A stretch of DNA of 64,000 nucleotides, taken from Elusimicrobiota bacterium (GTDB taxonomy: Bacteria > Elusimicrobiota > Elusimicrobia > UBA1565). The stretch lies in assembly GCA_043827405.1 (NCBI GenBank), contig JBDRPD010000012.1, positions 1 to 64,000 on the forward strand, in the 5' to 3' direction. The notes under the pieces are model-generated. The model searched no databases. It saw only the letters and a list, made by a program, of their open reading frames with translations, and was not told where the DNA came from. The translations under genes and the position numbers were made by a program. Within the stretch, counting starts at the first letter, position 1. Each line of letters opens with the position of its first letter. Below, in pieces: positions 1 through 33,887 of this stretch.

Positions 1-1
1 C

Positions 2-172
2 GACGCTTCCCTGGCTGAAGCGGAAAGGATTCATATCCTGAGAGTCCTCGCGGATGCCGAAGGCAATAAAACCAAGGCGGCCAAGATCCTCGAAGTCGAC
101 GTCAAGACCCTCTACAACAAGCTTAAGAAGTACGGCGTTGATCTGTCCGAGCAGGATTATTCCGCCTCCTGA
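2..172 (+). CDS. 3' end of a sigma54-dependent (NtrC/Fis-type HTH) transcriptional activator, partial
   Basis: Manual translation from position 2 gives DASLAEAERIHILRVLADAEGNKTKAAKILEVDVKTLYNKLKKYG, a typical Fis-family HTH. TGA stop at 170-172. Confidence 0.88.
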   Translation, partial: DASLAEAERIHILRVLADAEGNKTKAAKILEVDVKTLYNKLKKYGVDLSEQDYSAS

Positions 173-204
173 AACCCCTGCTGGTTCTATAAATTACCCT
201 GTTT

Positions 205-241
205 TTGGAATATTTACCTACCAACCAGGGAAATATTCCCT
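205..241. promoter_or_regulatory. Tandem dyad sites, candidate activator binding sites (UAS)
   Basis: AGGGAA-ATA-TTCCCT at 227-241 has perfect arms. The related TTGGAA-TAT-TTACCT lies 22 bp earlier at 205-219. A very AT-rich tract follows (~245-335). Confidence 0.5.
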
Positions 242-357
242 TGTTTATCGCTTAAATATGTAGGAAGTAAATGAATATGGTTAATGATTTGATATTTATG
301 CTTATTATTACTTATTTTTTTACATATTATCAGATCTGTACAAATTCTCCTCAATCC

Positions 358-373
358 TGGCAGTTTCGTTTCC
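358..373 (+). promoter_or_regulatory. Possible sigma54 -24/-12 promoter (imperfect)
   Basis: TGGCAGTTTCGTTTCC versus consensus TGGCACGNNNNTTGCW; the -12 GC is TC. It lies downstream of the dyads and next to an activator gene. Confidence 0.4.
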
Positions 374-571
374 ATTCATATTTTTGCGAGTTGGTCTCGC
401 AAAATTTATGACTGGTAAGGTATTCCAACATTCTCTCCTCCGAAGGTCTGCCTCGGATCGTGGTGTGACGATCCGTCCCGCTGGTTACGGGTACCAGTCA
501 ATTATTTCGTCGTATAGATGGAAGCAAGCCGGAAACAGTCTTAGAACGCCGTGTAAACGTGAGGGAAAAAA

Positions 572-1459
572 ATGAGATCTCTTGAGATGAAAGAGAAAAC
601 CGCCGCAATAGTGATCGGCATTGGAGCGCTGTGCGTAATGCTCACCGGAATCGGAGCGCGCTCGGCCGTCGCTGAAGGCGGTGCGGAGTATGTCGGGGCC
701 GAGACCTGTGTCGGATGCCACGACGCTAAAGGCGCTTCCTACAAGGATTCTTTGCATGGACGAAAGCTGCCTATCACCAAGAAGGTTACCTATGAGAAAT
801 CATGCGAAACCTGCCACGGCCCGGGCTCCAAGCATGTCGCCGCCGGCGGCGACAAGACGGACCCCGGCTTCAAGACCATCGGCAAGCCGAAATCCGAGGA
901 CTGCATGAAGTGCCACAAGGGCGGCGAGACCATGATGTGGGACATCAGTTCGCACGCGCAGGCGGATCTCTCCTGCAACACCTGCCACAGCGTCCACGAA
1001 GGCAAGGGCCGCAAGAACCTCAAGGCTTCCAGCACGGATTCCTGCCTCCAGTGCCATAAGAAGGTCGGGCTGGCGCTTGATATGCCGTCGCACCATCCGG
1101 TCAAGGAAGGCAAGGTCAGCTGCACCGACTGCCACAACCCGCATGGCGGACAGAACGGAAACCTAAGAGCGGAATCTGTCACCGAGACCTGCTACAAGTG
1201 TCATGCTGAAAAGGCGGGACCGTTCATTTATTCGCACCCGCCGGTACAGGAAGACTGCGGCATCTGCCACAAGCCGCATGGGGCGTCGCAGCAGAAGATG
1301 CTCAAGTGGTCGTCGCCGCGCATCTGCATGGCCTGCCACAACGGACACCACGAGGACAGCGGGGCGACCTGGGTCGCTAATATCCAGCGCCGCGGCGACT
1401 GCACCACGTGCCACCCGGAAATTCACGGGTCCGACCGCACCGCCATCTTCCACCCGTAG
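572..1459 (+). CDS. Periplasmic decaheme cytochrome c, DmsE/MtrA/MtoA/PioA family
   Basis: Signal peptide, 10 CxxCH motifs, family-typical SHHPVKEG, CHNPHG, GPFIYSHPPV and terminal CHPEIHGS segments. Confidence 0.93.
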   Translation: MRSLEMKEKTAAIVIGIGALCVMLTGIGARSAVAEGGAEYVGAETCVGCHDAKGASYKDSLHGRKLPITKKVTYEKSCETCHGPGSKHVAAGGDKTDPGFKTIGKPKSEDCMKCHKGGETMMWDISSHAQADLSCNTCHSVHEGKGRKNLKASSTDSCLQCHKKVGLALDMPSHHPVKEGKVSCTDCHNPHGGQNGNLRAESVTETCYKCHAEKAGPFIYSHPPVQEDCGICHKPHGASQQKMLKWSSPRICMACHNGHHEDSGATWVANIQRRGDCTTCHPEIHGSDRTAIFHP

Positions 1460-1532
1460 GCGATAACGGTTAGAGATTGAAATGAATCACGCGATCAAGA
1501 TGAAAAGAACGTGTACGCAAGAGGGAGGCGTC

Positions 1533-3602
1533 ATGACACGTAAGATAACAGCGATATTCGTAGGGGCGGCACTGCTCGCCCTGCCCTACGCCCAGCCGGC
1601 CGGTGCGGAGGTTACTGCGGGAGGAGAACTCGGCTACATCCATGTCGACGAGTTCGGCCCGCAGGGGCGGGTCCGGGCATTAGATGGACGCCAAGCGCTT
1701 ATTAGAGCGAATACGCGAACATCCACCGATTACGGCAATGAGACTGAACCGCGCGTGCGGCCCCAGTTCATTGAAGCCGACTTCTGGATGAAGTCGCATG
1801 ACGCCAATAAGCTGCTGGACCTTGGAGTCACGAACCTTAACAGCGGCAGCGAGAGCGCGTTTATCGACCTGAACCTGGGCCAAGCCTTCCGCCTAACCGG
1901 CGATCTGGACGTGCTGATCCGCCGCATGCCGCTGACCCACTGGGGCATGTACATCGACGGCGCCTACATCAACAACGTCGACCAAACGGTCGGCGCCGCC
2001 AACCGGCGGCACTATATCGTTTCCGGCGGCGAAGACCTGGGCGACGACCTGTTCGTCACGCGGGTACAGGCGCAGGCAAAGGCCCGCTATACTTTGCCGA
2101 CCTATCCCCTGCGCCTGAGCTTGGGGATGTGGAGAGAAGGGGAGCATGGGTCGGCGGTCGATGCCTTCGATCTCAACTGGGGCGGCGCCGGCACCTACAG
2201 CTACCACCGCTACAACCTGGACCGGTTCACGCGGCAGTATACCGCCGCGGTCGAGACCGATATAGGAGAGGGCACGGTGGAGTACAGCCACATGACGCGA
2301 AAGTTCGCCGAGAAGGGGCCGAATCTGGTGAATGATAACGAAACCGGCAACAAAGGCATCCTGCCCAACAGCCATGCGATGTACTTTCAGGATCATATCG
2401 CGAACCGCAATAAGGTCTCGTTTAGCTACCGTGTCGGACCGAAGTTCTCGGTGGCCGGCGGCGTGGCGAAGCTGAGCCGGCGCAACCCGTTCAATCACTA
2501 CGAGTTCAACGTCCACTCGGTGCATACGGGATTTGCCTATCGCCCTACCAAGACGCTGTCGTTTAGCGGGCGGATGTACGCGAGGGACGAAGCCACGATC
2601 GAGGACCTCAGCAGCGACCAGTACCTGGCCCTCGGCAACAAGTCGAACACCATGGACTTCCGGCGTTACAAGGGAGACTTCAAGATGCGCTATACCGGCA
2701 TCAAAAGCGTGGCAGTCACCGCTGGATACAAGCCCGAGCATATCAGCCGTGAGCATACGGACCTGTATACGCAAAGGTGGGGCACGACATACAGCTATAC
2801 TGATGGAACGTTCAACGACGCCAACAGATACGTCAACGATGTGGCGGGGAAGAACACCCTGCACCGGTTCAGCCTGGGGACGAAGGTCGACCTGCCGCTG
2901 GACGCGCAGTTGGACATCGGTCTAAAGCAGCTCATCGCCAACCGTTCCTCGTTCGTTTCAACGCCCAACAGAAGCAGCCGGGGCGACGCCACCCTGACCG
3001 CCCCTCTGGGCCAGCAGATGCAGCTGCTCGTCGGCGCGGGGCACCTCTACGAAAAGAACACCAAGGGCTATACCCGGTACAAGAGGAAAGAGTTCACGGC
3101 GCTCACCGGCTTCACCTGGACCGAGAAGGAAGGCCGCGGCTCCATGGGCATCAACTACCTGCTGGAGGACGGCCGCGACCTGTCGGACACCTTCTGGGGC
3201 GACGCTGCGGGAACCGGCAACGTTCACACGAGCGGCCGCCATGCGCCGTACCGCTACACGAACCGGACCGTATCGGGCAACGTCATGGTGAAGCTGCCGT
3301 GGGAGACGTCCGTCAACGGCAACGCCTCCTACACGCGGTCGCGCAGCGAGTGGAGCGTCGCGAACCAGTTCGACTATATGTTCAACGCCGCGCAGGGCGA
3401 GGAGCTGGTGCTCATCGACCCTTCGCTCGTCGAGATCACGCACTTCGGCCTGTCGATCGACCGCAAGTTCATGAAGAGCATGACGGCGCGGCTGCGCTAC
3501 GACTGGAACGGCTGGCAGAACAAACACGACAAGACCCTCAACGGCTCGGCGCAGATCATCAACCTGTCGCTGAGCGGAAAGTTCGGAGGGCCGAAGAGCT
3601 AG
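1533..3602 (+). CDS. Outer-membrane beta-barrel, MtrB/PioB-like porin partner of the decaheme cytochrome
   Basis: ATG at 1533 after GGGAGG. Signal peptide (..AQPAGA), ~690 aa of amphipathic Y/G/S/T-rich strands, directly downstream of the MtrA-like gene. Confidence 0.75.
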   Translation: MTRKITAIFVGAALLALPYAQPAGAEVTAGGELGYIHVDEFGPQGRVRALDGRQALIRANTRTSTDYGNETEPRVRPQFIEADFWMKSHDANKLLDLGVTNLNSGSESAFIDLNLGQAFRLTGDLDVLIRRMPLTHWGMYIDGAYINNVDQTVGAANRRHYIVSGGEDLGDDLFVTRVQAQAKARYTLPTYPLRLSLGMWREGEHGSAVDAFDLNWGGAGTYSYHRYNLDRFTRQYTAAVETDIGEGTVEYSHMTRKFAEKGPNLVNDNETGNKGILPNSHAMYFQDHIANRNKVSFSYRVGPKFSVAGGVAKLSRRNPFNHYEFNVHSVHTGFAYRPTKTLSFSGRMYARDEATIEDLSSDQYLALGNKSNTMDFRRYKGDFKMRYTGIKSVAVTAGYKPEHISREHTDLYTQRWGTTYSYTDGTFNDANRYVNDVAGKNTLHRFSLGTKVDLPLDAQLDIGLKQLIANRSSFVSTPNRSSRGDATLTAPLGQQMQLLVGAGHLYEKNTKGYTRYKRKEFTALTGFTWTEKEGRGSMGINYLLEDGRDLSDTFWGDAAGTGNVHTSGRHAPYRYTNRTVSGNVMVKLPWETSVNGNASYTRSRSEWSVANQFDYMFNAAQGEELVLIDPSLVEITHFGLSIDRKFMKSMTARLRYDWNGWQNKHDKTLNGSAQIINLSLSGKFGGPKS

Positions 3603-3632
3603 TTCTATAGGCAGCGAACCAGGCGCTGTGCC

Positions 3633-3680
3633 GCCGCCATCCGGGTGTGCGATATGCGCCCCGGGTGGCGGTTCGTTTTA
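3633..3680 (+). terminator. GC-rich hairpin after the porin gene (terminator or mRNA-stabilising stem)
   Basis: ccgccatccggg pairs with cccgggtggcgg (one G-U pair) and is followed by ttcgtttt. Confidence 0.5.
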
Positions 3681-3730
3681 GTAGGCTTTGTTGACGAGAT
3701 TGATCAACTGATCGATAACAGAGGACAGAC

Positions 3731-4177
3731 ATGAGAACCATCGCATGCGCAGTCGCCGTGTCGTTGTTGGGAGCCTTCTTCGCGCTGGATTTGGCGGCGC
3801 AGAAGGACGGCCCCGCCTACATCGGCGTCAAGAAGTGCAAGATGTGCCATATGAAGCAGTTCAAAACCTGGGAGAGTTCGAAGCACGCCAACAACTTCGC
3901 TGCGCTCCAGGGCGACGAGAAGAAGAACCCGGAATGCCTGAAGTGCCATACCACCGGCTTCGGCCAAGGCGGCTACGAGCTCGCCAAATCCGACGAGGAG
4001 AACAGCGCTTTCATCAACACCCAATGCGAGGCCTGCCACGGCCCGGGCGGCGACCACTTCAAGGCGCCCAAGGACCAGAAGAAGGCGACCATCCAGAAAG
4101 AGGTCAAGAACTGCTCCAACTGCCACAACCCGCACAAGAACTTCGGCGAGGAAGCCAAAGCGAAGCGGGGGGGATAA
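3731..4177 (+). CDS. Small periplasmic tetraheme cytochrome c (c554/c552-like)
   Basis: GAGGA RBS, signal peptide, motifs CKMCH, CLKCH, CEACH and CSNCH; YIGxxxC...W..SKHA...CEACHGPG pattern. Confidence 0.88.
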   Translation: MRTIACAVAVSLLGAFFALDLAAQKDGPAYIGVKKCKMCHMKQFKTWESSKHANNFAALQGDEKKNPECLKCHTTGFGQGGYELAKSDEENSAFINTQCEACHGPGGDHFKAPKDQKKATIQKEVKNCSNCHNPHKNFGEEAKAKRGG

Positions 4178-4206
4178 CCGGACCGGGCCCGTTGAGCCCG
4201 CCGAAA

Positions 4207-6075
4207 ATGAAGCCGATAAGGATCGCCGCGGCAGCACTAACGCTGTTGGTTATGGCGCTGGTACCCGTGCGTCTTGGCGCGCAGGAAAACGACGAATGCA
4301 TGGCCTGCCACAGCGAAGGGATGATGGGCGCCCGGCGCGTGAATATCAAGGCCTTCAAGGGCTCCATCCACGGCGAGCACCTCTGCGTCTCCTGCCATTC
4401 CGACCTCACCGACTTCCCGCACCCGGAAAAGCCCAAGCCGGTCGAGTGCAAGAGCTGCCACCGGGTGGAGGCCCAGATTTACCTAGACTCCGATCACGGC
4501 CGGGCGGCGGCGCGCGGGATGACGGAGGCCGCGGCCTGCAAGGACTGCCACGGCCACAGCCATACCCTGCTCAACTCGCGCCATCCCAAGTCCCCGGTCA
4601 ACCGCAAGAACATCCGCGACACCTGCGCCGCCTGCCACGGCAACCCCAAGCGCATGGAGAAAGCGCATCTTTCGATCCAGGACCCGCTGGACTCTTACGC
4701 CCATACCGTGCACGGGGAGGCGTTCAGCTCCGGGAAGGTCAACGCCGCCGTATGCACGGACTGCCACGGCTCGCATGACCTGCACGGCGCGGCCAACAGC
4801 ACGAGCCGCATCTTCTGGCGCCGGGTCCCCGAGACCTGCGGCCGCTGCCACGCCAATGTCCTGGCCGTATACAACAAGAGCATCCACGGCCGGGCCGCCA
4901 AAGCGGGAATTAAAGAGGCGCCGGTCTGCACCAGCTGCCACGGCGAGCATACCATCCGCGCCGCCAAGGATCCCGGAGCGTCGAGCTACGCCGGCCAGGT
5001 CACCGCGACCTGCACCGGCTGCCATGCCTCGGAGAAGCTCAACCGCAAATTCGGTCTCCCCATCGACCGTCTCAAGACCTATATGGACACCTATCACGGC
5101 CTGGCGCAGAAGCGCCAGGACCTGCACGTCGCCAACTGCGCCTCCTGCCACGGCTTTCACGATATCATGCCGCATACCGACCCCCAGTCGTCGATCCACC
5201 GGAGCAACCTCAGCCAGACCTGCGGCAAATGCCATCCCGGAGCGGGGATTCAGCTCGCGCGCGGCTATGTCCACGCCCCGCCCACCGAGCAGCACTGGTC
5301 GATATTCTGGGCCAAACGCTTTTACCTGCTGCTGATCCCTCTGGTCATCGGCGGCATGCTGCTGCACAACGGCCTCGATCTGCTGCGCAAGGCCCTGCGG
5401 CTGGCCCGCGGCCAGGAAACCATGGCGCCGCACACCGACCTGCGGCTGACCGTCAACGAGCGGCTGCAGCATTTGATCAACGGCGCCGCCTTCATCATCC
5501 TGGCCTATTCCGGCTTCGCGCTCAAGTACCCGGACGCCTGGTGGGCGCTGCCCCTGCGGTTCGCCGACGAGGACCTGCGGCGCATCATCCACCGCGCGGC
5601 GGCGGTTACCGTCGGCCTGCTCGGCATCTATCATACCGGCTACCTGCTGGGGACCAAGCGCGGACGAACCGTCCTCTTCGGCCTGCTGCCGCGCTGGCGC
5701 GACATCAGCGAGCCGTTCGCTCTGCTGGCCCATAATATCGGCTGGCGCTCCAATCCGCCGCACCTCGCAACGCCTTACAACTATATCGAGAAGTCGGAAT
5801 ACTGGGCGCTGGTCTGGGGCACCATAGTGATGATGGTAACGGGAACGGTACTGGCTTTCCCCGACCTGACCCTGCAGCACCTCCCCGCCTGGGCGCCCGA
5901 GCTCGCGACCATGATCCATTACTACGAGGCCGTGCTGGCTTGCCTGGCCATCGCGGTATGGCATTTTTACTGGGTGATATTCGATCCCGCCGTCTATCCC
6001 ATGAACTGGGCCTGGCTGGCGGGGTATGTCCGGCTGAAAGGGAAGAAGGACAAGACCAAAGGGCTGAAGGCATGA
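4207..6075 (+). CDS. Multiheme cytochrome c (11 CxxCH) fused to a diheme cytochrome b domain (CbcL/FdnI-like)
   Basis: Likely ATG at 4207 (MKPIRIAAAALTLL, a signal peptide). 11 CxxCH. C-terminal TM helices with four His (RLQH, IIHR, MIHYYE, VWHF) and YNYIEKSEYWA. Confidence 0.88.
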   Translation: MKPIRIAAAALTLLVMALVPVRLGAQENDECMACHSEGMMGARRVNIKAFKGSIHGEHLCVSCHSDLTDFPHPEKPKPVECKSCHRVEAQIYLDSDHGRAAARGMTEAAACKDCHGHSHTLLNSRHPKSPVNRKNIRDTCAACHGNPKRMEKAHLSIQDPLDSYAHTVHGEAFSSGKVNAAVCTDCHGSHDLHGAANSTSRIFWRRVPETCGRCHANVLAVYNKSIHGRAAKAGIKEAPVCTSCHGEHTIRAAKDPGASSYAGQVTATCTGCHASEKLNRKFGLPIDRLKTYMDTYHGLAQKRQDLHVANCASCHGFHDIMPHTDPQSSIHRSNLSQTCGKCHPGAGIQLARGYVHAPPTEQHWSIFWAKRFYLLLIPLVIGGMLLHNGLDLLRKALRLARGQETMAPHTDLRLTVNERLQHLINGAAFIILAYSGFALKYPDAWWALPLRFADEDLRRIIHRAAAVTVGLLGIYHTGYLLGTKRGRTVLFGLLPRWRDISEPFALLAHNIGWRSNPPHLATPYNYIEKSEYWALVWGTIVMMVTGTVLAFPDLTLQHLPAWAPELATMIHYYEAVLACLAIAVWHFYWVIFDPAVYPMNWAWLAGYVRLKGKKDKTKGLKA

Positions 6076-8837
6076 AGCTCCGGGCCGGACTGCTGGCGGG
6101 CGCGTTGTCGCTCTTGGCCGCCGCCGGACCGGCGTCATCGCGCGCGCAGGAATGCTTCGACTGCCACGGGGAAGCCGGATTCCAGACTGAGCGCGACGGC
6201 AAGCCGCTCTCCCTCCACGTCGACCAGAAGAAATTCGCGGCCTCGGTCCACCAGGGCCTCGCCTGCGTCTCCTGCCACGCCGACCTGGAAGGCAAGGAGA
6301 TTCCGCACGCCGAACGCCTGCGGCCGGTCGACTGCGGAGTCTGCCACGCCGAGCCCCAGAAGAAGTTCGCCGACAGCCTGCACGGCAAGGCCCTGGCGCG
6401 CGGCGACAAGCTTGCGCCGCGCTGCGCCAGCTGTCACGGCAAGCATGACATTCTGCCCGCCAAGCACCCCCAGTCGGCGGTGGCGCCGCTGCGCGTCCCC
6501 TATATCTGCGGCTCCTGCCACCAGGAAGGCGCCGCGGTGCAGAGCCAGCGCGAGATCCACCAGCACAATATCCTCCAGAACTACTCGCAGAGCATCCACG
6601 GCGAAGGCCTGATGCAGAAAGGGCTGAGCGTGAGCGCCACCTGCGCCTCCTGCCATTCGGCGCACCAAATCCTGCCGCATACCGATCCGCGCTCGACCAT
6701 CGCGCACGGCAACGTGGTCCGCACCTGCACCCAATGCCATGGCCAGATCGAGAACGTACACCGCAAGATCATCAAGGGCGAGCTGTGGCAGAAGGCGCCC
6801 GGCGTCATCCCGGTCTGCGTCGAATGCCACCAGCCGCATAAGGCGCGCAAGGTGTTCTATGACCAGGGCACGGCCGACAAGGACTGCCTGAGCTGCCATG
6901 CCCGTAAAAATATCCGTTCCGCCGACGGCCGCAGCCTGTTTGTCGACCAGAGCCACCTCGCGGGCTCGGCGCATGCCGGCAATGCCTGCGCCCAATGCCA
7001 TAAGGGGGTGACCCCGTCCAAGCAGCGGCCCTGCGAGAAGGTCGCCAAGAAGGTCGACTGCGCGGTGTGCCACAACGACCAGGTCGAGCGCTACCAAAAA
7101 AGCATCCATGGGACGCTGCAGGCGCAGGGCGACCAGAACGCCCCGTCCTGCGCCGAATGCCACGGTACGCACGGCATTGGGCGCAAAGCGGACCCGAACT
7201 CGGCGATCTTTCCGCTCAATGTCCCCAAGCTGTGCGGGAGCTGCCATCGCGAAGGCGAAAAAGCGGCCGTTCGCCGCCACAGCAAGGAGCGGGATATCCT
7301 AACGCACTACGCCGAAAGCATACACGGCAAGGGCCTGCTCAAGAGCGGGCTGGTCGTGACCGCCACCTGCAGCAACTGCCATACGGCGCATGGCGAGCTC
7401 CCGGCCGACCGGCCGGAATCCAGCGTCAACCAGAAGAACATCGCGCAGACCTGCGCCAAGTGCCATCACGGCGTCTACGAGCAGTTCACCGCCAGCGTGC
7501 ACTCCCCGCTGAAAACCGCGACGAGCAAGGAGCTTCCCGTATGCAGCTCCTGTCATTCGGCGCATACCATCGGCCGCACCGACCGGGACCAGTTCAAGCT
7601 GGAGATCACCGACCAGTGCGGCAAATGCCATAAAGACGAAACCAAGAGCTACTTCGAGACCTATCACGGCAAGGTCTCGCAGTTGGGCTATGCCAAAACC
7701 GCCAAGTGCCACGACTGCCACGGCGCGCACAATATCCTGGGCATCAACGAGCCGGATTCAACGCTCAGCCATCAGAACATCACCGATACCTGCCGCAAAT
7801 GCCATCCCGGAGCGACAAAAAAATTCGCGGGCTACCTCACCCACAGCACCCACCATGACCCGCACAAATACCCGCTGATCTTCTGGACCTTCTGGGCCAT
7901 GACCGCGCTTCTGATCGGGACCTTCCTCGCCTTCGGCCTCCATACCTTGCTGTGGCTGCCGCGCTCCCTGCAAATGCGGCGCGAGCATCCTCCCGAACCT
8001 TATGACGAAAAGAAAAAGCAGCTGCGACGCTTCTCGCCGCTGCAGCAGGTTCAGCATGTAGTAATGATCGTCAGCTTCCTCACCTTGACGCTCACCGGCA
8101 TGACCCTGAAATTCTCCTATGCCGGATGGGCTGTTGTCCTGGCGAAGTTTCTCGGCGGCTTCGAGGCCGCGGGCATACTGCACCGCTTCGCGGCGGTAAC
8201 CATGATCCTGCTTTTCGCCTCGCACCTATGGGACTTGGCGAGGAAAGTGCGCTCACACAAGGGAAGTTATACGTCGTTTCTGCTCGGCCCCAACTCCATG
8301 CTGCCGGCCTGGAAAGATCTCGGCGAAGTGATCGCCACGCTGAAGTGGTATCTGGGACTGGGACCGCGCCCCCGCTACGGCCGCTGGACCTATTGGGAGA
8401 AATTCGACTACTTCGCCGTATTCTGGGGCGTGACCATAATCGGCTCGACCGGGCTGGCCCTCTGGTTCCCGGAAGTCGTGACCATTCTACTGCCCGGCTG
8501 GATCATCAACGTGGCGACCATTATTCATTCCGATGAAGCCCTGCTCGCCTCCGGCTTCATATTTACCATTCACTTCTTCAACACCCACTTCCGCCCTGAG
8601 AAATTCCCGATGGACATAGTAGTCTTCACCGGCCGCATGCCGCTTGCGGAGTTCCAACGCGAGCGGCCGGAAGAGTATGAAGAGTTGGTCCGTGAAGGCA
8701 GGCTGGATGAGCGCCTGGCGAATCCGCTGCCGCTATGGGCGATCCGGGCCATCCGGGCTGGCGCCTGGACGGCTCTTGCCATCGGTACCGTCTCGGTATT
8801 GGCCATCATCTACGCGATGCTGTTCGCGTACCGATAA
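6072..8837 (+). CDS. Multiheme cytochrome c (19 CxxCH) fused to a diheme cytochrome b domain (CbcL-like)
   Basis: ATGA overlap at 6072-6075 and its own signal peptide. 19 CxxCH. Cytochrome b domain with QVQH, ILHR, IIHSDEA, TIHFF and RWTYWEKFDYFAVFWG. Confidence 0.9.
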   Translation: MKLRAGLLAGALSLLAAAGPASSRAQECFDCHGEAGFQTERDGKPLSLHVDQKKFAASVHQGLACVSCHADLEGKEIPHAERLRPVDCGVCHAEPQKKFADSLHGKALARGDKLAPRCASCHGKHDILPAKHPQSAVAPLRVPYICGSCHQEGAAVQSQREIHQHNILQNYSQSIHGEGLMQKGLSVSATCASCHSAHQILPHTDPRSTIAHGNVVRTCTQCHGQIENVHRKIIKGELWQKAPGVIPVCVECHQPHKARKVFYDQGTADKDCLSCHARKNIRSADGRSLFVDQSHLAGSAHAGNACAQCHKGVTPSKQRPCEKVAKKVDCAVCHNDQVERYQKSIHGTLQAQGDQNAPSCAECHGTHGIGRKADPNSAIFPLNVPKLCGSCHREGEKAAVRRHSKERDILTHYAESIHGKGLLKSGLVVTATCSNCHTAHGELPADRPESSVNQKNIAQTCAKCHHGVYEQFTASVHSPLKTATSKELPVCSSCHSAHTIGRTDRDQFKLEITDQCGKCHKDETKSYFETYHGKVSQLGYAKTAKCHDCHGAHNILGINEPDSTLSHQNITDTCRKCHPGATKKFAGYLTHSTHHDPHKYPLIFWTFWAMTALLIGTFLAFGLHTLLWLPRSLQMRREHPPEPYDEKKKQLRRFSPLQQVQHVVMIVSFLTLTLTGMTLKFSYAGWAVVLAKFLGGFEAAGILHRFAAVTMILLFASHLWDLARKVRSHKGSYTSFLLGPNSMLPAWKDLGEVIATLKWYLGLGPRPRYGRWTYWEKFDYFAVFWGVTIIGSTGLALWFPEVVTILLPGWIINVATIIHSDEALLASGFIFTIHFFNTHFRPEKFPMDIVVFTGRMPLAEFQRERPEEYEELVREGRLDERLANPLPLWAIRAIRAGAWTALAIGTVSVLAIIYAMLFAYR

Positions 8838-8852
8838 GCAGTATAATCTTCC

Positions 8853-9812
8853 ATGAAAAAAGGGACCCTCCTCGCCCTCGACGTCGGCGGAACTAAGATT
8901 TCCGGAGCGCTCGTCACCCGGCGCGGCCGCATCCTGGCGCGCGTCAAGGAACGCGTACCAAAAGGCGCCGGCCGCACGGCGTTGTTCGGCATCATGCGCG
9001 GCATCCTCAAGGGGCTGATCGCAAAAGCCCCGCGAGGCGCCAAGCCGCAAGCGATCGGCGCCGGCGTGCCGGGCATTGTCGACGCCGCCCGGGGCAGGAT
9101 TCTGATCGCGCCCAATATCGACCTTTCCGGCTTCCCGGTCGGGCCGCGGCTAAGCCGCGCCTTCGCGCTGCCGGCGGCGATAGGCAATGACGTAAACGTC
9201 GCCCTGCTCGGCGAGCAGTGGCTGGGCGCCGCCAAGGGCCGGCGCAACGTCATCGGACTCTTTCCCGGCACCGGCGTCGGGGGAGGAATTATCGTCAACG
9301 GCTCTTTGCTGACCGGCGCTCACGGCGCCGGCGCCGAACTGGGACACCTGGTGATGCTGCCCGGCGGACCGCGCTGCGGCTGCGGCAACCGGGGCTGCCT
9401 GGAGGCATTCGCCAGCCGGCGCGCCATCGAGCGCCGCATCCGCAAAGCGGTGAATGCGGGAGAGAAATCGGCGATCAAAAAGCTCAACAAGGGGACGCTC
9501 GACATTATCCGCAGCAAGGTGCTGAAAAAGGCGCTCAAGCGCAAGGACCGGGTGGCGACCCGAGCCGTCGGCGCCGCCGCGCTTGTTTTCGGCGACGCCT
9601 GCGTTTCCCTGCGCCACATCTTCGATCCCGAACTGTTCGTGTTCGGCGGCGGGCTGATCGAAGCCTGCGGCAAATTCATCCTGCCCATCGTCAGGAAGCG
9701 GCTGGACCGCGACCCCTTCTTCAAGTCCGTGGGCCGCTGCCCGGTGGTCCCCTCGGCGCTCGGCGACGACGCGGTAATCCTCGGCGCGGCGGCCTTGGCG
9801 AAAGAGCTGTAG
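8853..9812 (+). CDS. ROK family sugar kinase (glucokinase-like)
   Basis: LALDVGGTKI, GNDVN, GTGVGGG and ELGH...CGCGNRGCLE zinc motif. Confidence 0.92.
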   Translation: MKKGTLLALDVGGTKISGALVTRRGRILARVKERVPKGAGRTALFGIMRGILKGLIAKAPRGAKPQAIGAGVPGIVDAARGRILIAPNIDLSGFPVGPRLSRAFALPAAIGNDVNVALLGEQWLGAAKGRRNVIGLFPGTGVGGGIIVNGSLLTGAHGAGAELGHLVMLPGGPRCGCGNRGCLEAFASRRAIERRIRKAVNAGEKSAIKKLNKGTLDIIRSKVLKKALKRKDRVATRAVGAAALVFGDACVSLRHIFDPELFVFGGGLIEACGKFILPIVRKRLDRDPFFKSVGRCPVVPSALGDDAVILGAAALAKEL

Positions 9813-9817
9813 GAAGC

Positions 9818-11122
9818 TCAGCCTTTGAGCCAGGCGCAGAGCCGGTCGGCGGCGGCGACCGTCGGCCCGCAGCTGCGCTCAAGGAAGGATAAGGGGACCG
9901 GCTGGTCCTCGCGCAGCGACTCAACGCTCGCGATGGCCGCCCCGCCGTCAAAGTCGACATAGGCCAGGCGCAGCGTCAGCTCTTCGGGCGGGCGCCCAAA
10001 GTCGCTCCCCGGAAGGACGGCGACGCCGGTCTCCTCGAGGAGACGCGCGCACAGCTCGCGGCTCGTTCGGATACCGCGGCGCGCCAAAGGCTCCGCCAGC
10101 GGCGTGAGATCGGGGAACAAGTAAAACCCTCCCAGCGGCCTGACGACCTCGGCTCCGGCATCCTTGAGCCGATCCGCGATATGATTGCCGAGCGCCTTAA
10201 GCACCCTGCGGCAGCTGCCCAAATAACGCTCCAGCTCGGGGTCATCCGCGAAAGCGCGCACGGCGGCGAACTGGATGGGCGCGCTGGTCGAGGTATAGGT
10301 CTCGCTGGCGACGACGGCCATGGCGTCGAGCAGCCAGCGCAGGTTCGCCGGGAAAATAAAGAAGCCCAGACGCCAGCCGCCGGCGCCGCACCATTTGCTC
10401 AAGCCGCCGCTGAATATGGTCCCTTCCGGATACAGCGGCGCGATCGAACGGTGGTTGGCGAAAAAGTTCAGCTTGCCGTAAATCTCGTCGGACAACAGCA
10501 GCACATTATGCTCGCGGGCCGCCTCGGCGATAGCCTCCAGCTCGCCCGGGCCGTAGGTGCCGCCGCCGGGATTGGCCGGATAGTTGAGAATCAGCAGCCG
10601 GGGGCGTCCGGGATCTTCGGCGCACAAGGCCCGCAGATCGTCGGGCATGATCTTCCAGTTGTCCTCGCGCCGGGTCGGCAGCTTATGCGCCCGGCGTCCG
10701 ATAATGTTCGCCTGCGGCTCATAAGAGACCCATGAGGGCGTCGGCAGGACGAGGTCGCCGTTGTAGGCGAGCTGAAGGATGAACATCAGCTCCTTGGAGC
10801 CCGGTCCGATGATGACGTCCTCGGCGGTGCAGTCGATGCCGTAGACGCGGCGGTGATGCTCGGCAATTGCCGCGCGTAAACTGGGCAGGCCTTTGACCGG
10901 CAGGTAGTCCTTTTGAAAAGCGTTCTTCTTGAGCTCGTCAACGACGCTGGCGGGAACCGGAAAGGGCGACTGGCCAAGGCCCAGCATGAAGACTTCGCGT
11001 CCGGCGGCGCGCAGGTCGCGGCAGCGCTGCTGAATCGCGATGGTCGCTGAAGTTTTGGCCCCGCGCACGCGCGGGTTCAGGCTGCTCGGAAGAAACTGCG
11101 CGCGCGGCTTCGCCGCCGTCAT
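9818..11122 (-). CDS. PLP-dependent aminotransferase class I/II (aspartate aminotransferase-like)
   Basis: YPANPGG, SDEIY and GLSKWCGAGGWRLG PLP-lysine motif. Confidence 0.9.
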   Translation of the reverse strand: MTAAKPRAQFLPSSLNPRVRGAKTSATIAIQQRCRDLRAAGREVFMLGLGQSPFPVPASVVDELKKNAFQKDYLPVKGLPSLRAAIAEHHRRVYGIDCTAEDVIIGPGSKELMFILQLAYNGDLVLPTPSWVSYEPQANIIGRRAHKLPTRREDNWKIMPDDLRALCAEDPGRPRLLILNYPANPGGGTYGPGELEAIAEAAREHNVLLLSDEIYGKLNFFANHRSIAPLYPEGTIFSGGLSKWCGAGGWRLGFFIFPANLRWLLDAMAVVASETYTSTSAPIQFAAVRAFADDPELERYLGSCRRVLKALGNHIADRLKDAGAEVVRPLGGFYLFPDLTPLAEPLARRGIRTSRELCARLLEETGVAVLPGSDFGRPPEELTLRLAYVDFDGGAAIASVESLREDQPVPLSFLERSCGPTVAAADRLCAWLKG

Positions 11123-11766
11123 CTCAGCGCCTGCAGGAAAGGCTCGCGCAGCCTCTTGAGAAAGGTCGCGCGATGCAGGCCTGCTACCGGCCCGAGGCGC
11201 TCGAGCGCGGCGTAATGCGCGGCCGTGCCGTAGCCCTTATGCCGCGCCAGCTCGTAGCCGGGATGGCGTTTATCCAGGACTCCCATCCAGCGGTCGCGGA
11301 CGACCTTGGCGACGATGCTGGCGGAAGCGATGCACAGCGAGTACTTGTCGCCGGCGACCACCGCTTCCTGCCGCCCTTCCCATCCGGGGACGGCGCGGTT
11401 GCCGTCGACGAGAACGAGGAGGCCTCCGCGGGTCTGCCGGCAGCGTCTTAGCGCCCGCCGCATCGCCGCGAGGCTGGCCTGCAGGATATTGATGCGGTCG
11501 ACCTCATCGGGCAGCGCCCAGCCGACACCGACGGCGACGGCCGTCTGCCGGATTAGAGGGAAGAGCCGTTCACGTTTTACGGGAGAGAGCTTCTTCGAGT
11601 CGCGTACTTCAGAGAGTTCCGGCAGCGGACGCGCGGGGAGCAGAACCGCGGCGGCGACCACGGGACCGGCCAGCGGTCCCCGACCGGCCTCATCGACGCC
11701 AATCAGCCCGCCGCACCCTCGCCGGGCCCGGTAGGCGGCATCGAACTTCTCGAGCGTATTGGTCAG
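11119..11766 (-). CDS. rnhB: Ribonuclease HII (start probably non-canonical)
   Basis: GVDEAGRGPLAGPV lies in frame upstream of the tracked GTG. Also DSKKL, LVDGN, IASASIVAKV and HKGYGT. Confidence 0.92.
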   Translation of the reverse strand: MTNTLEKFDAAYRARRGCGGLIGVDEAGRGPLAGPVVAAAVLLPARPLPELSEVRDSKKLSPVKRERLFPLIRQTAVAVGVGWALPDEVDRINILQASLAAMRRALRRCRQTRGGLLVLVDGNRAVPGWEGRQEAVVAGDKYSLCIASASIVAKVVRDRWMGVLDKRHPGYELARHKGYGTAAHYAALERLGPVAGLHRATFLKRLREPFLQALR

Positions 11767-11768
11767 TG

Positions 11769-12224
11769 CTATGCTGCGGCGGCTTCAACCTTGGAAGCGC
11801 TGTCGTCTGCGGAGGGGGAAGCGGGCGTCTCCGCGGCGACGGGAATCATCTCTTCCTGCGGCTTTCCGGTCTCGGGGACATTGATCTTGACCTGCGTGCG
11901 CTCCCGGATGCGGGCGGCCTTGCCCTTGAGCTCGCGCAGATAATACAGCTTGGCGCGGCGTGCTTTGCCCGCTTTTATGATCTCGATCTTTTGAATGCGC
12001 GGGGACTGCAGAGGCAGGATGCGCTCGACGCCCACACCAAATGAAATCTTGCGGACGGTGAAGGATTCGGAAACACCCATGCCGCGGCGGCGGATGCATA
12101 CGCCCTCGAACGCCTGAATGCGCTCGCTGTCGCCTTCAACGACCTTGATGTGGACGCGGACGGTATCGCCCGGCCTGAAATTGGGGATTTTGCTCTCTGC
12201 CTTATTATCTATTTTAACTGCCAT
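11769..12224 (-). CDS. rplS: 50S ribosomal protein L19 with acidic C-terminal extension
   Basis: [23 protein letters not shown] and RRAKLYYLR. Confidence 0.97.
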
Positions 12225-12256
12225 AACTCACTCCCAAAATATATCGTAGACAGCAA

Positions 12257-12955
12257 TTATACCTTATTTTTCAGCCGTTCCGGACGCTTGCGGCGGGTCG
12301 CCCGCCGTGCGGCGGCACGGCGCCAAGCCGCGATCTTGGCATGATCACCCCCGAGCAGCACCTCCGGGGCTTTCCTGCCGCGCCACACGCGGGGACGCGT
12401 ATATTGCGGGTAGTCCAGGAGCTCGCTGGAAAAGCTCTCCTCCGCCGCCGCGTCCTCTCTGGCCAATGCGCCGGGGAGCAGCCTTGCCACCGCGTCCACC
12501 AGGACCATCGCCGGGAGCTCGCCGCCCGTCAAAACATAATCACCTATCGAGAGCTCCTCGTCCACGAAATCGAGCAGGCGCTCATCGAAGCCCTCGTAGT
12601 GCCCGCAGAGGAGAACCAGGTGCTTTTCGCCGGACAACCGGCGCGCGTCCGCCTGCTCGAAGCGGCGTCCCTGAGGCGAGAGCAGGATGACCTTGGCGCC
12701 CGGACGGCGCACCTTCCGCAGCGCGCGGTACAAGGGCTCCGCCATAAGCACCATTCCCGGGCCGCCGCCGAAAGGCCGGTCGTCGACGGTCTTGTGCCGG
12801 TCCGTCGCGAACTCGCGGGGGTTGGTGAACGCCAGCTCGAACAGCCCCTTATCGAGTGCGCGCCGGACGATGCTCAAGGACATCGGCCCGACGAACATCT
12901 CGGGAAAGAGCGTTACCACGTCTATCCGCAGTCGAGCCCCGCGCTTGCCGGCCAC
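12257..12955 (-). CDS. trmD: tRNA (guanine37-N1)-methyltransferase
   Basis: TLFPEMF, VDDRPFGGGPGM, CGHYEG and SIGDYVLTGGE. Confidence 0.97.
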   Translation of the reverse strand: MAGKRGARLRIDVVTLFPEMFVGPMSLSIVRRALDKGLFELAFTNPREFATDRHKTVDDRPFGGGPGMVLMAEPLYRALRKVRRPGAKVILLSPQGRRFEQADARRLSGEKHLVLLCGHYEGFDERLLDFVDEELSIGDYVLTGGELPAMVLVDAVARLLPGALAREDAAAEESFSSELLDYPQYTRPRVWRGRKAPEVLLGGDHAKIAAWRRAAARRATRRKRPERLKNKV

Positions 12956-12961
12956 GGCTTT

Positions 12962-13189
12962 TTAATCCAGATCCAGCAGCACCTTCCGGCGCGTTTTGGC
13001 TCCGGCGATACCGACGACGGAACGGATTGCCTTGATCACCTTGCCCTGCTTGCCGATGATCTTGCCCTTGTCTTCGTCGGCAACCGCGAGACTGATGCGG
13101 GTCAAGTCGCCGTCCTCGGTCGCTTGCGCCTCGACCTTATCGGGCTCATTAACCAGGCTCTTCGCCAGGTAAAGCGCCAACTCCCTCAT
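12962..13189 (-). CDS. khpA: KH-domain RNA-binding protein
   Basis: 75 aa with GKIIGKQG GxxG motif, immediately downstream of rpsP. Confidence 0.9.
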   Translation of the reverse strand: MRELALYLAKSLVNEPDKVEAQATEDGDLTRISLAVADEDKGKIIGKQGKVIKAIRSVVGIAGAKTRRKVLLDLD

Positions 13190-13581
13190 GCCTTCTCAGC
13201 GTCCGCCGCTTCTTCCTTCTTTTCCGGAGCCTTCTCAGCCTCCGCCGCTTCTTCCTTCTTTTCTGGAGTCTTCGCGGCCGCCTTTTCCTTGGCGATCAGC
13301 TTGCGCGACTTCTTGACCTTCTTGCGGCCTTCCTTGCCGCAGGCGATCGACTTCAGAAGCGCCGCCAGCGTCTCAGACGGCTTCGCGCCGGATTTGATCC
13401 AATGATCGTAGCGCTCCTGGTTGATTGTAACCTTGTCTTTGAGCTTCACGGCCCGGGGGTCGTAAGAGCCGAGAACCTCCAACGGCTTGCCCTGCGCGGC
13501 CTGCCGCCGGTCGATCGCGACCACCCGATAATACGGCATCTTATGCTTGCCGATCCGTTTAAGCCTGATTGCGACTGCCAT
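13186..13581 (-). CDS. rpsP: 30S ribosomal protein S16 with K/E/A-rich tail
   Basis: MAVAIRLKRIG, PYYRVV, LGSYDP and GAKPSET. The tail contains a duplicated PEKKEEAAxAEKA unit. Confidence 0.96.
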   Translation of the reverse strand: MAVAIRLKRIGKHKMPYYRVVAIDRRQAAQGKPLEVLGSYDPRAVKLKDKVTINQERYDHWIKSGAKPSETLAALLKSIACGKEGRKKVKKSRKLIAKEKAAAKTPEKKEEAAEAEKAPEKKEEAADAEKA

Positions 13582-13593
13582 ATGCGTCCTCCT

Positions 13594-14292
13594 CTAACTT
13601 CGTTTAAAAGCCTGCTGCGCCGCGCGGCGCAGATTTTTCAGCGCCGTCACGGGATTGCTCGCCTTGAAAACCGCGCTGCCCGCGACCAGCGAATCGGCGC
13701 CGGCCGCCGCCGCCGGCGCGACCGAGCTCTGATTGATGCCTCCGTCCACCTGGAGCCACACCTTGCGCCCCTTGCGGTCGATCGCCCGGCGAATCTTGCG
13801 AATCTTGGGCAGCATCTCCGTCATAAATCCTTGTCCGCCGAATCCGGGGGCGACGGTCATAACCAGCGCCAGATCGATGTCGTCGATATAAGGCAGCAGC
13901 GCCTCGGCCGGCGTCTTGGGCTTGATCGCGAGCCCCGCGCCGACACCCATCCGGCGCAGGCGGCGCAGCAGCGGCCGGGGACTGCGGCAGGCTTCGAGAT
14001 GGATGGTGACCCAGTCCGCACCGGCGCGCGCGAAAACCGGACCCATATCCCGCGGATTATCGACCATCAGATGCGCGTCGAGATAAACCCCGCGCCCCTT
14101 GCGGCGCAAGGCCCGGACAACATCCGGCCCGAAACTCAAATTGGGGACGAAATGCCCATCCATGACATCGACCGAAGCCCACCGGGCGCCGGCGGCGAGC
14201 AGCGGCTTGAGCGCGCGGCGCAGATCGGCGAAATCGGCGGCCAGCAGCGAGGGCACGATCTCAATACCGCCGTTGGGAGCGGGCCGCTTCAT
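13594..14292 (-). CDS. rpe: Ribulose-phosphate 3-epimerase
   Basis: PSLLAADF, DVMDGHFVPN, DAHLMV, PGFGGQ and QVDGGIN. ATG at 14292 overlaps the upstream stop. Confidence 0.95.
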   Translation of the reverse strand: MKRPAPNGGIEIVPSLLAADFADLRRALKPLLAAGARWASVDVMDGHFVPNLSFGPDVVRALRRKGRGVYLDAHLMVDNPRDMGPVFARAGADWVTIHLEACRSPRPLLRRLRRMGVGAGLAIKPKTPAEALLPYIDDIDLALVMTVAPGFGGQGFMTEMLPKIRKIRRAIDRKGRKVWLQVDGGINQSSVAPAAAAGADSLVAGSAVFKASNPVTALKNLRRAAQQAFKRS

Positions 14293-15257
14293 CACAGGTC
14301 CCGCTCCTCCACGAGGATATTGTTGAGGAAAATCTTGACGCGCGCGCGGCCCTCGGGCACCGACAGGTCGATCTTGCTGCCGGGCGACTTGATTCCGTTG
14401 AACAGCTCCCGCTCGCCGTGCTCGTCGACCAGCTTGATGCGCACCAGGCTCTCCGTGCTGCCCTGCGGAACCTGGTATTGGAACGCGACGGCGCCGGCCT
14501 TTTCCTTCGGTCCCCCGGGCTTGCCGCTGATCGTGACCATCAGGTGCGTGTCGTCGGAGACGATCGAATCCGCCGTCGGATCCTGCCCCAGGACCGTCCC
14601 ATAGGGGAACAGCGAGCTCTTGTCTTTTTCGATCGTCAGCTTGACGCCCTTCTCGGAGGTCCACTGCGACACCTCAACGACGTTCTTGCGCATAAAATCC
14701 GGCACCAGCCGGATATCGTCCGGGGGCTTGCCCGCCGAGACGACGACGTTGACCATCGAGTTCTGCTCCACGCTCGTTTCCGCTCGCGGGTCCTGCGAGA
14801 GCACCAGCCCCTTGTCCATGCGCAGAGAGTAGGACTCGGTCACTTCGCCGAGGGTCAGCTGGTTCTGCCGCAGCAGCATCTCGGCGTTGCGCATCGGCAG
14901 CCCCATAATGGCGGGGGCGAATACGGTGGCTCCGCCCTGGCTGACGACGACCCTTATCGCCTTCCCTTCCCGCACCTTGGTCCCCGCCGGGGGAAGCTGG
15001 CGCAGGATGGAGCCGATCGCCACCGTGTTATTGAATTCCGTTCCTTCTTTCATGATGGAGAGTTTCAGCGGCGCGATTAAATCCAGCGCGCCGGAGAGCG
15101 ATTTCCCCGTAAGATCGGGGGTCACCTGAATGCCGCGGGAGTGGACGATGCCTTCGAACCCCCACTGCAGCATGAAGATACCCAGGCCCAGAAGCACGCA
15201 GAGCGTGATCCCAATCTCCCAGATATAGAGCCTGCTTTTCTTAGCTGTCGTTGCCAC
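14292..15257 (-). CDS. Membrane-anchored PASTA-repeat protein without a kinase domain
   Basis: N-terminal TM helix and three PASTA-like repeats (PDLTGK..ILRQLPPAG; PAIMG..VLSQDPRAE; PDFM..VLGQDPTAD). Confidence 0.85.
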   Translation of the reverse strand: MATTAKKSRLYIWEIGITLCVLLGLGIFMLQWGFEGIVHSRGIQVTPDLTGKSLSGALDLIAPLKLSIMKEGTEFNNTVAIGSILRQLPPAGTKVREGKAIRVVVSQGGATVFAPAIMGLPMRNAEMLLRQNQLTLGEVTESYSLRMDKGLVLSQDPRAETSVEQNSMVNVVVSAGKPPDDIRLVPDFMRKNVVEVSQWTSEKGVKLTIEKDKSSLFPYGTVLGQDPTADSIVSDDTHLMVTISGKPGGPKEKAGAVAFQYQVPQGSTESLVRIKLVDEHGERELFNGIKSPGSKIDLSVPEGRARVKIFLNNILVEERDL

Positions 15258-25235: not shown

Positions 25236-25349
25236 TTGGCGCCTTCAACGGACCGCTTAACGCAGCAGACTGCTTTCGCCGTTCATGTATTAATTTCTTC
25301 TATAATTCACTTTAAGCAGCCGGCACAGAATCAGAGGAATCCCGCATAT

Positions 25350-33883
<8,534 letters not shown>

Positions 33884-33887
<4 letters not shown>

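Follow-up and report, generated by a model that had tools for sequence, protein, structure and literature searches.

A candidate cross-envelope electron conduit in a five-gene multiheme cytochrome cluster of an Elusimicrobiota bacterium

Can a bacterium from a lineage that is no model of metal respiration pass electrons across its envelope and, if so, in which direction? The question is raised by five adjacent + strand genes, here called A to E, at positions 572 to 8837 of a 64,000-nucleotide stretch (the window; positions 1 to 64000 of contig JBDRPD010000012.1, or C12) from an Elusimicrobiota genome of 4.33 Mb and 98% completeness (GCA_043827405.1). A preliminary description, made from the sequence alone, had reported 44 c-type heme motifs in these co-oriented genes. 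Our count of CxxCH motifs confirmed this number, with 10, 0, 4, 11, and 19 motifs in A to E, respectively, whereas 2,000 shuffles of each protein reached only 1 to 3 motifs at most. The locus very probably encodes a cross-envelope electron conduit, whichever way the electrons move; this general proposal of the preliminary description is supported by the match of A and B to the MtrAB structure and by the CbcL-type character of D and E. The reading that we prefer, with a probability of roughly 0.55, is that an MtrAB/MtoAB-type conduit moves respiratory electrons outward, from quinol to mainly soluble extracellular acceptors.

A predicted outer-membrane pair and two inner-membrane fusions

Gene A encodes an MtrA-type decaheme cytochrome, as had been proposed: besides its ten CxxCH motifs, it scored 229.9 bits against TIGR03508 (cut-off, 192.2), the DmsE family, and its best sequence match was MtrA of Shewanella baltica (6r2q_A; E value, 7.3e-45). 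The best-scoring NCBIfam model for A was that of Geobacter GSU2203 (NF041028), with 250 bits, which is below its curated cut-off of 325 yet higher than the TIGR03508 score. The GSU2204 model (NF041027) gave 28 bits with gene B (cut-off, 350) and weak matches in 13 of the 14 porins of the gene B family; compared with this Geobacter pair, B has no CxxCH motif. The nearest named homologues of A and D are from Elusimicrobia. Given these relatives, the higher score of A with the GSU2203 model, and a porin without a match to the MtrB hidden Markov models (HMMs), the label "Shewanella/Gallionellaceae-type" that had been attached to the pair is not especially apt.

Gene B gave no match to Pfam, PF11854 included, or to TIGR03509; PF11854 was weakly matched by 6 of the 14 family members (best E value, 1.1e-5). 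The family profile found no PDB sequence, and a word search returned no homologue of B; homologues were recovered instead from the genomes of relatives. With AlphaFold, the single sequence yielded a predicted local distance difference test score (pLDDT) of 27, whereas AlphaFold2 with a 14-row alignment that included 13 homologues from relatives gave a pLDDT of 70 and 26 long strands, as counted manually. Foldseek ranked MtrB (6r2q_B) first for this model (E value, 1e-16; TM score, 0.59; next match, 1e-8), and so did the structure comparison by VIA (Z score, 23.4; root mean square deviation, 4.5 over 552 residues; next Z score, 15.9); Atlas placed B with the MtrB/PioB (PF11854) clusters at a TM score of 0.80. 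B is thus predicted to be a divergent, MtrB-like, plug-less 26-strand barrel, and the large barrel that had been expected at 1533 to 3602 is what the modeling returned. MtrB itself is a 26-strand barrel that sheathes MtrA, according to the available part of PMC7198977. The S. baltica MtrAB pair (6R2Q) likewise combines a 10-heme cytochrome with a 26-strand barrel, the latter being predicted here; differences are a barrel identity of ~10%, the absence of cysteine from B, and the lack of an MtrC match in our searches. Shewanella MtrB carries a CXXC motif. B also has an insertion of ~22 residues near its N terminus relative to the aligned homologues. This porin subfamily escapes the MtrB HMMs, so that screens based on them would undercount the module.

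Gene C matched PF13435 (E value, 6.6e-13) and fell into the c554-family clusters of Atlas (0.97). Genes D and E are CbcL-type fusions, in agreement with the preliminary description, each joining a multiheme c domain to an FdnI-type cytochrome b domain with four invariant membrane histidines. Gene D matched PF01292 (4.2e-10); its H422, H462, H571, and H586 are invariant, and the four histidines were aligned when the D-family profile was compared with FdnI (1kqf_C; E value, 3.8e-7). Gene E matched TIGR01583 (6.7e-9) and has six hydrophobic segments, and its histidines 662, 704, 819, and 834, which are invariant in both proteins, align with the four of gene D; the profile of its membrane domain had no PDB match. 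The motif spacing describes an 8+3 heme chain in D and an 8+8+3 chain in E, with the 8-heme block duplicated. D and E share 31% identity across 616 columns, and a membrane-domain tree of 137 rows, labeled by similarity with one row unlabeled, places D and E types on either side of one branch with a support of 99. The two are old paralogues and not the outcome of a local duplication. A sixth C-terminal helix was seen in 0 of 53 D-type and 81 of 83 E-type proteins by a crude hydropathy test, a scan that detected just three of the five inferred helices of gene D itself. Across 31 tandem pairs, the distances among D proteins track those among E proteins (rho, 0.78; 0 of 5,000 permutations), a correlation that shared ancestry explains and that we therefore did not count as evidence for binding.

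For the CbcL/MtrH/MtoC family, the accessible text of Zhong and Shi (2018; PMC6295460) gives 3 to 23 hemes and 15 phyla. With 11 and 19 CxxCH motifs, both D and E lie within this range; the six membrane helices of the family are present in E and not in D. Because of the missing sixth helix, we file D as a CbcL-like paralogue and not as an orthologue. Geobacter sulfurreducens CbcL (GSU0274) likewise combines a periplasmic multiheme domain with an FdnI/HydC-type diheme b domain, but it has 9 hemes and six helices, whereas in D there are 11 hemes and no sixth helix, and D belongs to a clade separate from E. E corresponds, by its motif positions, to the 19-heme entries of Table S2 of PMC6295460, that is, to the catalogued six-helix long form of 900 to 950 amino acids, two examples of which (907 and 929 amino acids) are from Elusimicrobia. 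In the 138 rows of that table, judged by motif and helix positions only, no clear D-type entry was found. To place E more widely, we used the best 80 of 590 confirmed GTDB loci (referred to below as the 80 E loci); all 65 full-length copies of E among them have 19 hemes.

Distribution and relation to known systems

Among 40 relatives from the order of the host, A has a match in 24 and the membrane domain of D in 17. All 17 D carriers are among the 24 relatives with the decaheme and none is among the 16 without it (0/16), genomes that as kin are not independent of each other. Across the phylum, TIGR03508 at 1e-30 was matched in 24 of 301 genomes, with 0 of 88 and 0 of 89 in the two largest families. 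We compiled 20 loci around the best decaheme matches, from the genomes of 19 relatives. A long gene directly follows the decaheme in all 20, and 13 of these are B homologues by BLAST; three of the other seven were compared with TIGR03509 and reached 179 to 219 bits, under the cut-off of 240. D or E occurs in the same locus in 10 of the 20 cases and both occur in 3, in differing orders. Since other loci carry genes for NapC-like tetrahemes, 13-heme NrfH-like proteins, or c7 trihemes or dihemes beside the pair, the partners of A-B are interchangeable. Neighbors in these loci also include genes for heme synthesis, ResB/CcsA maturation, and Crp-type regulators.

At the 80 E loci, a D-type gene stands in tandem in 35 cases and on the other strand in 13, and is absent with adequate flanks in 20; the other 12 loci are truncated. 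The tandem D-E pairs span seven phylum-level groups, namely, Elusimicrobiota, Acidobacteriota, Bacteroidota, Ignavibacteria, Gemmatimonadota, Eisenbacteria, and Firestonebacteria. Gene C homologues directly precede the D-E pair in 10 of these best 80 loci, and an MtrA-type gene is present in only 2; on this ground the locus combines two modules, A-B and C-D-E, in a mosaic.

Further observations concern individual loci. (i) Three loci from Bacteroidota/Ignavibacteria (L054, L056, and L072) are large cytochrome islands around D-E, with genes for cytochromes of 31 to 35, 14, and 11 hemes, together with a cytochrome b6-like gene and a six-heme NrfH-like gene of ~500 amino acids. (ii) In four loci from Ignavibacteria/Chitinophagales (L050, L098, L103, and L107), the E homologue is divided between two genes, one with the 19 hemes and one for the membrane part. 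(iii) Locus L035 (G024:C168) has two tandem pairs of decaheme and long gene, followed by a 9-heme D-type gene. (iv) Three putative porins beside Bacteroidota D-E pairs are not claimed as barrels, as they had no Pfam or NCBIfam match.

The preliminary description had presented the union of a porin-cytochrome pair with CbcL-type proteins as a new hybrid. That claim has to be withdrawn, since the design is already published as Mto/MtrH: in the accessible text of PMC6295460, mtoC/mtrH (CbcL homologues) cluster with mtoAB/mtrAB in Gallionella capsiferriformans, Dechloromonas aromatica, Rhodoferax ferrireducens, and seven further species, and the part of Baker et al. available to us (PMC8805035) places mtoC and mtoD beside mtrCAB in Betaproteobacteria. 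In spirit, the second refuting case of the preliminary description, a five-gene arrangement already described with another function, therefore applies, although the function published is the same one. The Mto cluster of G. capsiferriformans ES-2 and D. aromatica RCB (mtoA, mtoB, mtoC, and mtoD) shares with the locus a decaheme, an MtrB-type porin, a small periplasmic cytochrome, and a CbcL-family fusion, and no MtrC is listed for it. It differs in having one 9-heme MtoC where two fusions (11 and 19 hemes) are found here and the monoheme MtoD in place of a tetraheme, and the porin studied here is below MtrB HMM detection and comes from an Elusimicrobiota host. In R. ferrireducens, which reduces Fe(III), the Mtr cluster (mtrABC, cymA, and mtrH) also unites MtrAB with a CbcL homologue; in contrast, our host genome had no MtrC match and our cluster has no CymA.

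The locus is thus a variant of a design known from iron-cycling Proteobacteria, unusual mainly by its host and by the presence of two distinct inner-membrane cytochromes, and it introduces no new principle. Its distinctive features are the lineage, the divergent and HMM-invisible porin subfamily, the lack of an MtrC match, and the unexplained tandem pairing of D and E. The locus type was not found in the accessible parts of PMC12133095, 10.64898/2026.05.27.727921, 10.1101/765248, and PMC12740246, and searches of a partial literature collection, also for CbcL paralogue pairs, gave no paper on such a locus in Elusimicrobiota; genome-survey supplements may already flag such loci. The phylum survey among these sources (10.1101/765248) covers O2 and nitrogen respiration, and the words "iron" and "extracellular" do not occur in its available text. 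If functional, the locus would add extracellular electron transfer to free-living Elusimicrobiota, and the module is common in the order of the host (24 of 40 relatives). The compact cluster would also be a handy unit for studying the role of a second, five-helix CbcL paralogue and how direction is set in MtrC-less conduits.

Direction of electron flow and competing explanations

If the conduit runs outward, D and E would oxidize membrane quinol via two b hemes each and then load their own periplasmic c-heme chains. Tetraheme C, or the long arm of E, would hand the electrons to decaheme A, which would sit inside B with its last heme exposed outside. The acceptors would be mainly soluble (Fe(III) chelates and humic quinones), because no MtrC was found. 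An MtrC/OmcA-like surface cytochrome is absent from the cluster, TIGR03507 had no match in the one genome searched, and PF22113 had none in 41 genomes at 1e-12, in searches that had no MtrC-positive control genome and that a divergent protein could escape; whether the conduit is "complete," as it had been called, is uncertain for this reason. According to the available part of PMC7198977, MtrAB lacking MtrC still reduces Fe(III) in soluble form, whereas insoluble Fe(III) is not reduced. By analogy with Geobacter CbcL, quinol oxidation would yield little conserved energy; the two paralogues may cover different potential ranges or act as a pair. According to the parts of the sources available, CbcL hands electrons to a small periplasmic cytochrome (PMC13591261) and oxidizes quinol at low yield, its FdnI-like geometry implying proton release on the cytoplasmic side when run outward (10.1101/2022.08.31.506072); by analogy, the same geometry run inward would conserve energy. 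In favor of an outward conduit, D occurs only in decaheme-bearing relatives, and NapC-like inner-membrane cytochromes or small c7 triheme carriers often flank the A-B pair where D or E is missing.

A number of points weigh against this reading. (i) The exact five-gene order occurs in none of the 20 decaheme loci of relatives, and among the 80 E loci, C-D-E mostly stands without a nearby MtrA-type gene. (ii) No feature separates CbcL/MtrH from MtoC in the portion of Zhong and Shi consulted (PMC6295460), so that the direction is not readable from the sequence, and the MtrC-less layout is also typical of uptake (Mto) systems. (iii) The host has electron sinks for O2, nitrate, and sulfate. (iv) Sideroxydans MtoD bound neither MtoA nor ImoA (PMC13390432, available part), and a shared neighborhood therefore does not prove partnership. 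(v) In the 98% complete host, no menaquinone pathway was recognized (MqnC, MqnA/D, and MenD had no match, and MenB was under the cut-off), even though the genome has many quinone-linked complexes; any mechanism built on quinol is left with a real gap here. (vi) Whereas 13 of 13 aligned homologues end with the terminal Phe, B carries five more residues after it (window positions 3585 to 3602), and the covering contig has the same letters.

The main rival is an inward, Mto-style wire, in which Fe(II), reduced humics, or partner cells would supply electrons that pass through A and B to quinone at D and E, where the FdnI geometry would take cytoplasmic protons, conserve energy, and feed O2, nitrate, or sulfate respiration. 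We consider it rather unlikely. The failure to find MtrC/OmcA, the resemblance of the layout to mtoA-mtoB-mtoC, and the alignment of the D profile with FdnI, which operates inward, all speak for it, and the host genome offers sinks in a heme-copper oxidase, an alternative-complex-III-like cluster, a NapA-like enzyme, DsrAB, DsrC, DsrM/K/J, QmoC, AprA, and Hmc/Tmc. Sulfate reduction, nevertheless, does not explain the module, since dsrA was found in 2 of the 41 genomes searched and the decaheme in 25 of 41 (the other dsrA carrier, G003, also holds the closest copy of the conduit); moreover, CbcL, the sole family member tested, runs outward, and Fe(II) donates electrons poorly to a low-potential quinone. 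A bolder combination would make D and E the subunits of a single ancient, two-armed quinone oxidoreductase, kept in tandem across at least seven phylum-level groups; the 19-heme arm of E would span the periplasm and dock on an MtrA-type wire without a shuttle, and flow through this wire would be inward, with energy from minerals or partner cells conserved via an undescribed quinone. As a whole, this combination is improbable.

It is likewise unlikely that two independent cassettes were joined, with A-B as a conduit and C-D-E mainly linking the quinone pool to periplasmic enzymes or storing charge with no need to feed A. The widest intergenic gap, 128 nucleotides, does separate B from C; the C-D-E order recurs in 10 of the 80 E loci, in other phyla, without an MtrA-type gene; and 7 of the 24 decaheme-bearing relatives have no D match. 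Yet D always accompanies the decaheme among the 40 relatives (17/17), D or E has repeatedly been re-linked to A-B in different orders, and outside the phylum the D-E pair often lies amid further multiheme genes. The least probable alternative is that A-B serves a surface-bound terminal enzyme, as DmsEF does for DMSO reductase, or that the porin of this strain is poorly assembled via its extended C terminus. The DmsE identity of TIGR03508, molybdoenzymes elsewhere in the genome, and the five extra C-terminal residues of B are compatible with it, but genes of the DMSO reductase family, or for any molybdopterin enzyme, are absent from the cluster and from 62 selected neighbor proteins of relatives' loci, and the five intact frames with normal GC content at third codon positions (GC3) argue against an impaired porin.

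Host genome and surroundings of the cluster

According to the preliminary description, the host appeared to come from a lineage not known as a model metal respirer, and S16 and L19 were suggested for its taxonomy. S16 identity and an L19 plasmid search gave no placement, whereas RpoB did and supports this view: in a tree of 10 rows, the host groups (98/98) with an Elusimicrobia metagenome-assembled genome and with relatives of its order and class; the sister of this group is a second Elusimicrobia metagenome-assembled genome (100/99). By this placement the host is a member of the Elusimicrobiota. It possesses CcsB-type genes for heme attachment in cytochrome maturation.

On contig C105, at ~36100 to 86000, a sulfate-reduction-type set comprises QmoC with two HdrA-like genes, DsrA, DsrB, a DsrL-like gene, DsrC, DsrM/K/J, HmcABC, TmcB/C/D-like genes, and AprA. 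An 82-amino-acid open reading frame (ORF) after dsrB is named by no model and is DsrD by position only; the composition of this contig is somewhat atypical (rank 46 of 58). Dsr genes in Elusimicrobia are noted in the available part of PMC10504309 and not in the main text of PMC10591310. On contig C3 (100584 to 106000), genes for a polyprenyl synthase, a MenA-like UbiA transferase, and three radical-SAM proteins form a cluster that is a candidate for the synthesis of an unconventional prenylated carrier. UbiD of the host was rejected as a ubiquinone marker, since it lies beside UbiX, AcnX, and a GHMP kinase: GHMP kinase, UbiX-type flavoprotein, UbiD, and aconitase X stand in a row on contig C54 (99437 to 102964). 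This row resembles the archaeal-type modified mevalonate pathway. Contig C53 carries ten tandem frames of ~1020 amino acids with four CxxCH motifs each (31882 to 63154), one of which was tested and scored as a MauG/MbnH-like di-heme enzyme; similar genes lie at C108:46811-49870 and at C53:89158-91332, the latter beside an arsenite-oxidase-like molybdoenzyme.

The features of the locus are compiled in Table 1, with the starts considered likely. For A, the start of one database gene call gives 5 amino acids less; for D, the ORF-finder start at 3745 is a 154-codon upstream extension that overlaps gene C in another frame.

Table 1. Features of the locus in window coordinates
Feature	Position	Strand	Description
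Gene A	572..1459	+	MtrA/DmsE/MtoA-type decaheme cytochrome c, 295 amino acids, signal-like hydrophobic N-terminal stretch
Gene B	1533..3602	+	Divergent MtrB-like outer-membrane beta-barrel (predicted), 689 amino acids, without heme motif
Gene C	3731..4177	+	Small c554-like tetraheme cytochrome, 148 amino acids, signal-like N terminus, predicted periplasmic carrier
Gene D	4207..6075	+	11-heme c domain and FdnI/b561-type diheme-b membrane domain, 622 amino acids
Gene E	6072..8837	+	19-heme c domain and six-helix cytochrome-b domain, 921 amino acids; long-form CbcL/MtrH/MtoC member
Upstream intergenic region	173..571	.	AT-rich, probable promoter region

The gaps A-B, B-C, C-D, and D-E measure 73, 128, 29, and -4 nucleotides, respectively, the start of E overlapping the stop of D by 4 nucleotides, and GC3 is 0.77 to 0.87 in all five genes; the term operon is applied to A to E as a gene arrangement only. 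Upstream of A lie an AT-rich spacer and then the Fis-type tail of a regulator, with a GC content of 0.43 over positions 1 to 570 versus 0.62 within the genes. A sigma-70-like site at 289 to 318 (+ strand) is a single match at chance level, and a sigma-54-like site at 358 with 1 mismatch was rejected, as it recurs in 1 of 18 upstream regions of relatives; no FNR or CRP box was found in the upstream region with consensus motifs. One DNA run, possibly the source sample, covers 30 of 30 bins of positions 1 to 12500 with no indels listed, and the one strong DNA match among metagenomes is a groundwater metagenome that is possibly the source sample. No RNA data set was listed as containing the locus, and of two RNA runs, one contained two small partial pieces and the other none, which is no evidence either way. 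The tetranucleotide distance is at the 86th percentile among 443 windows, and D and E group with homologues from the same family and from Elusimicrobiota; recent horizontal transfer is thus not indicated. A ROK-family gene (8853 to 9812) begins 15 nucleotides after E on the same strand, opposite-strand housekeeping genes that include those for L19 and S16 occupy 9818 to 14664, and an ORF of 2883 codons lies on the + strand at 25236 to 33887.

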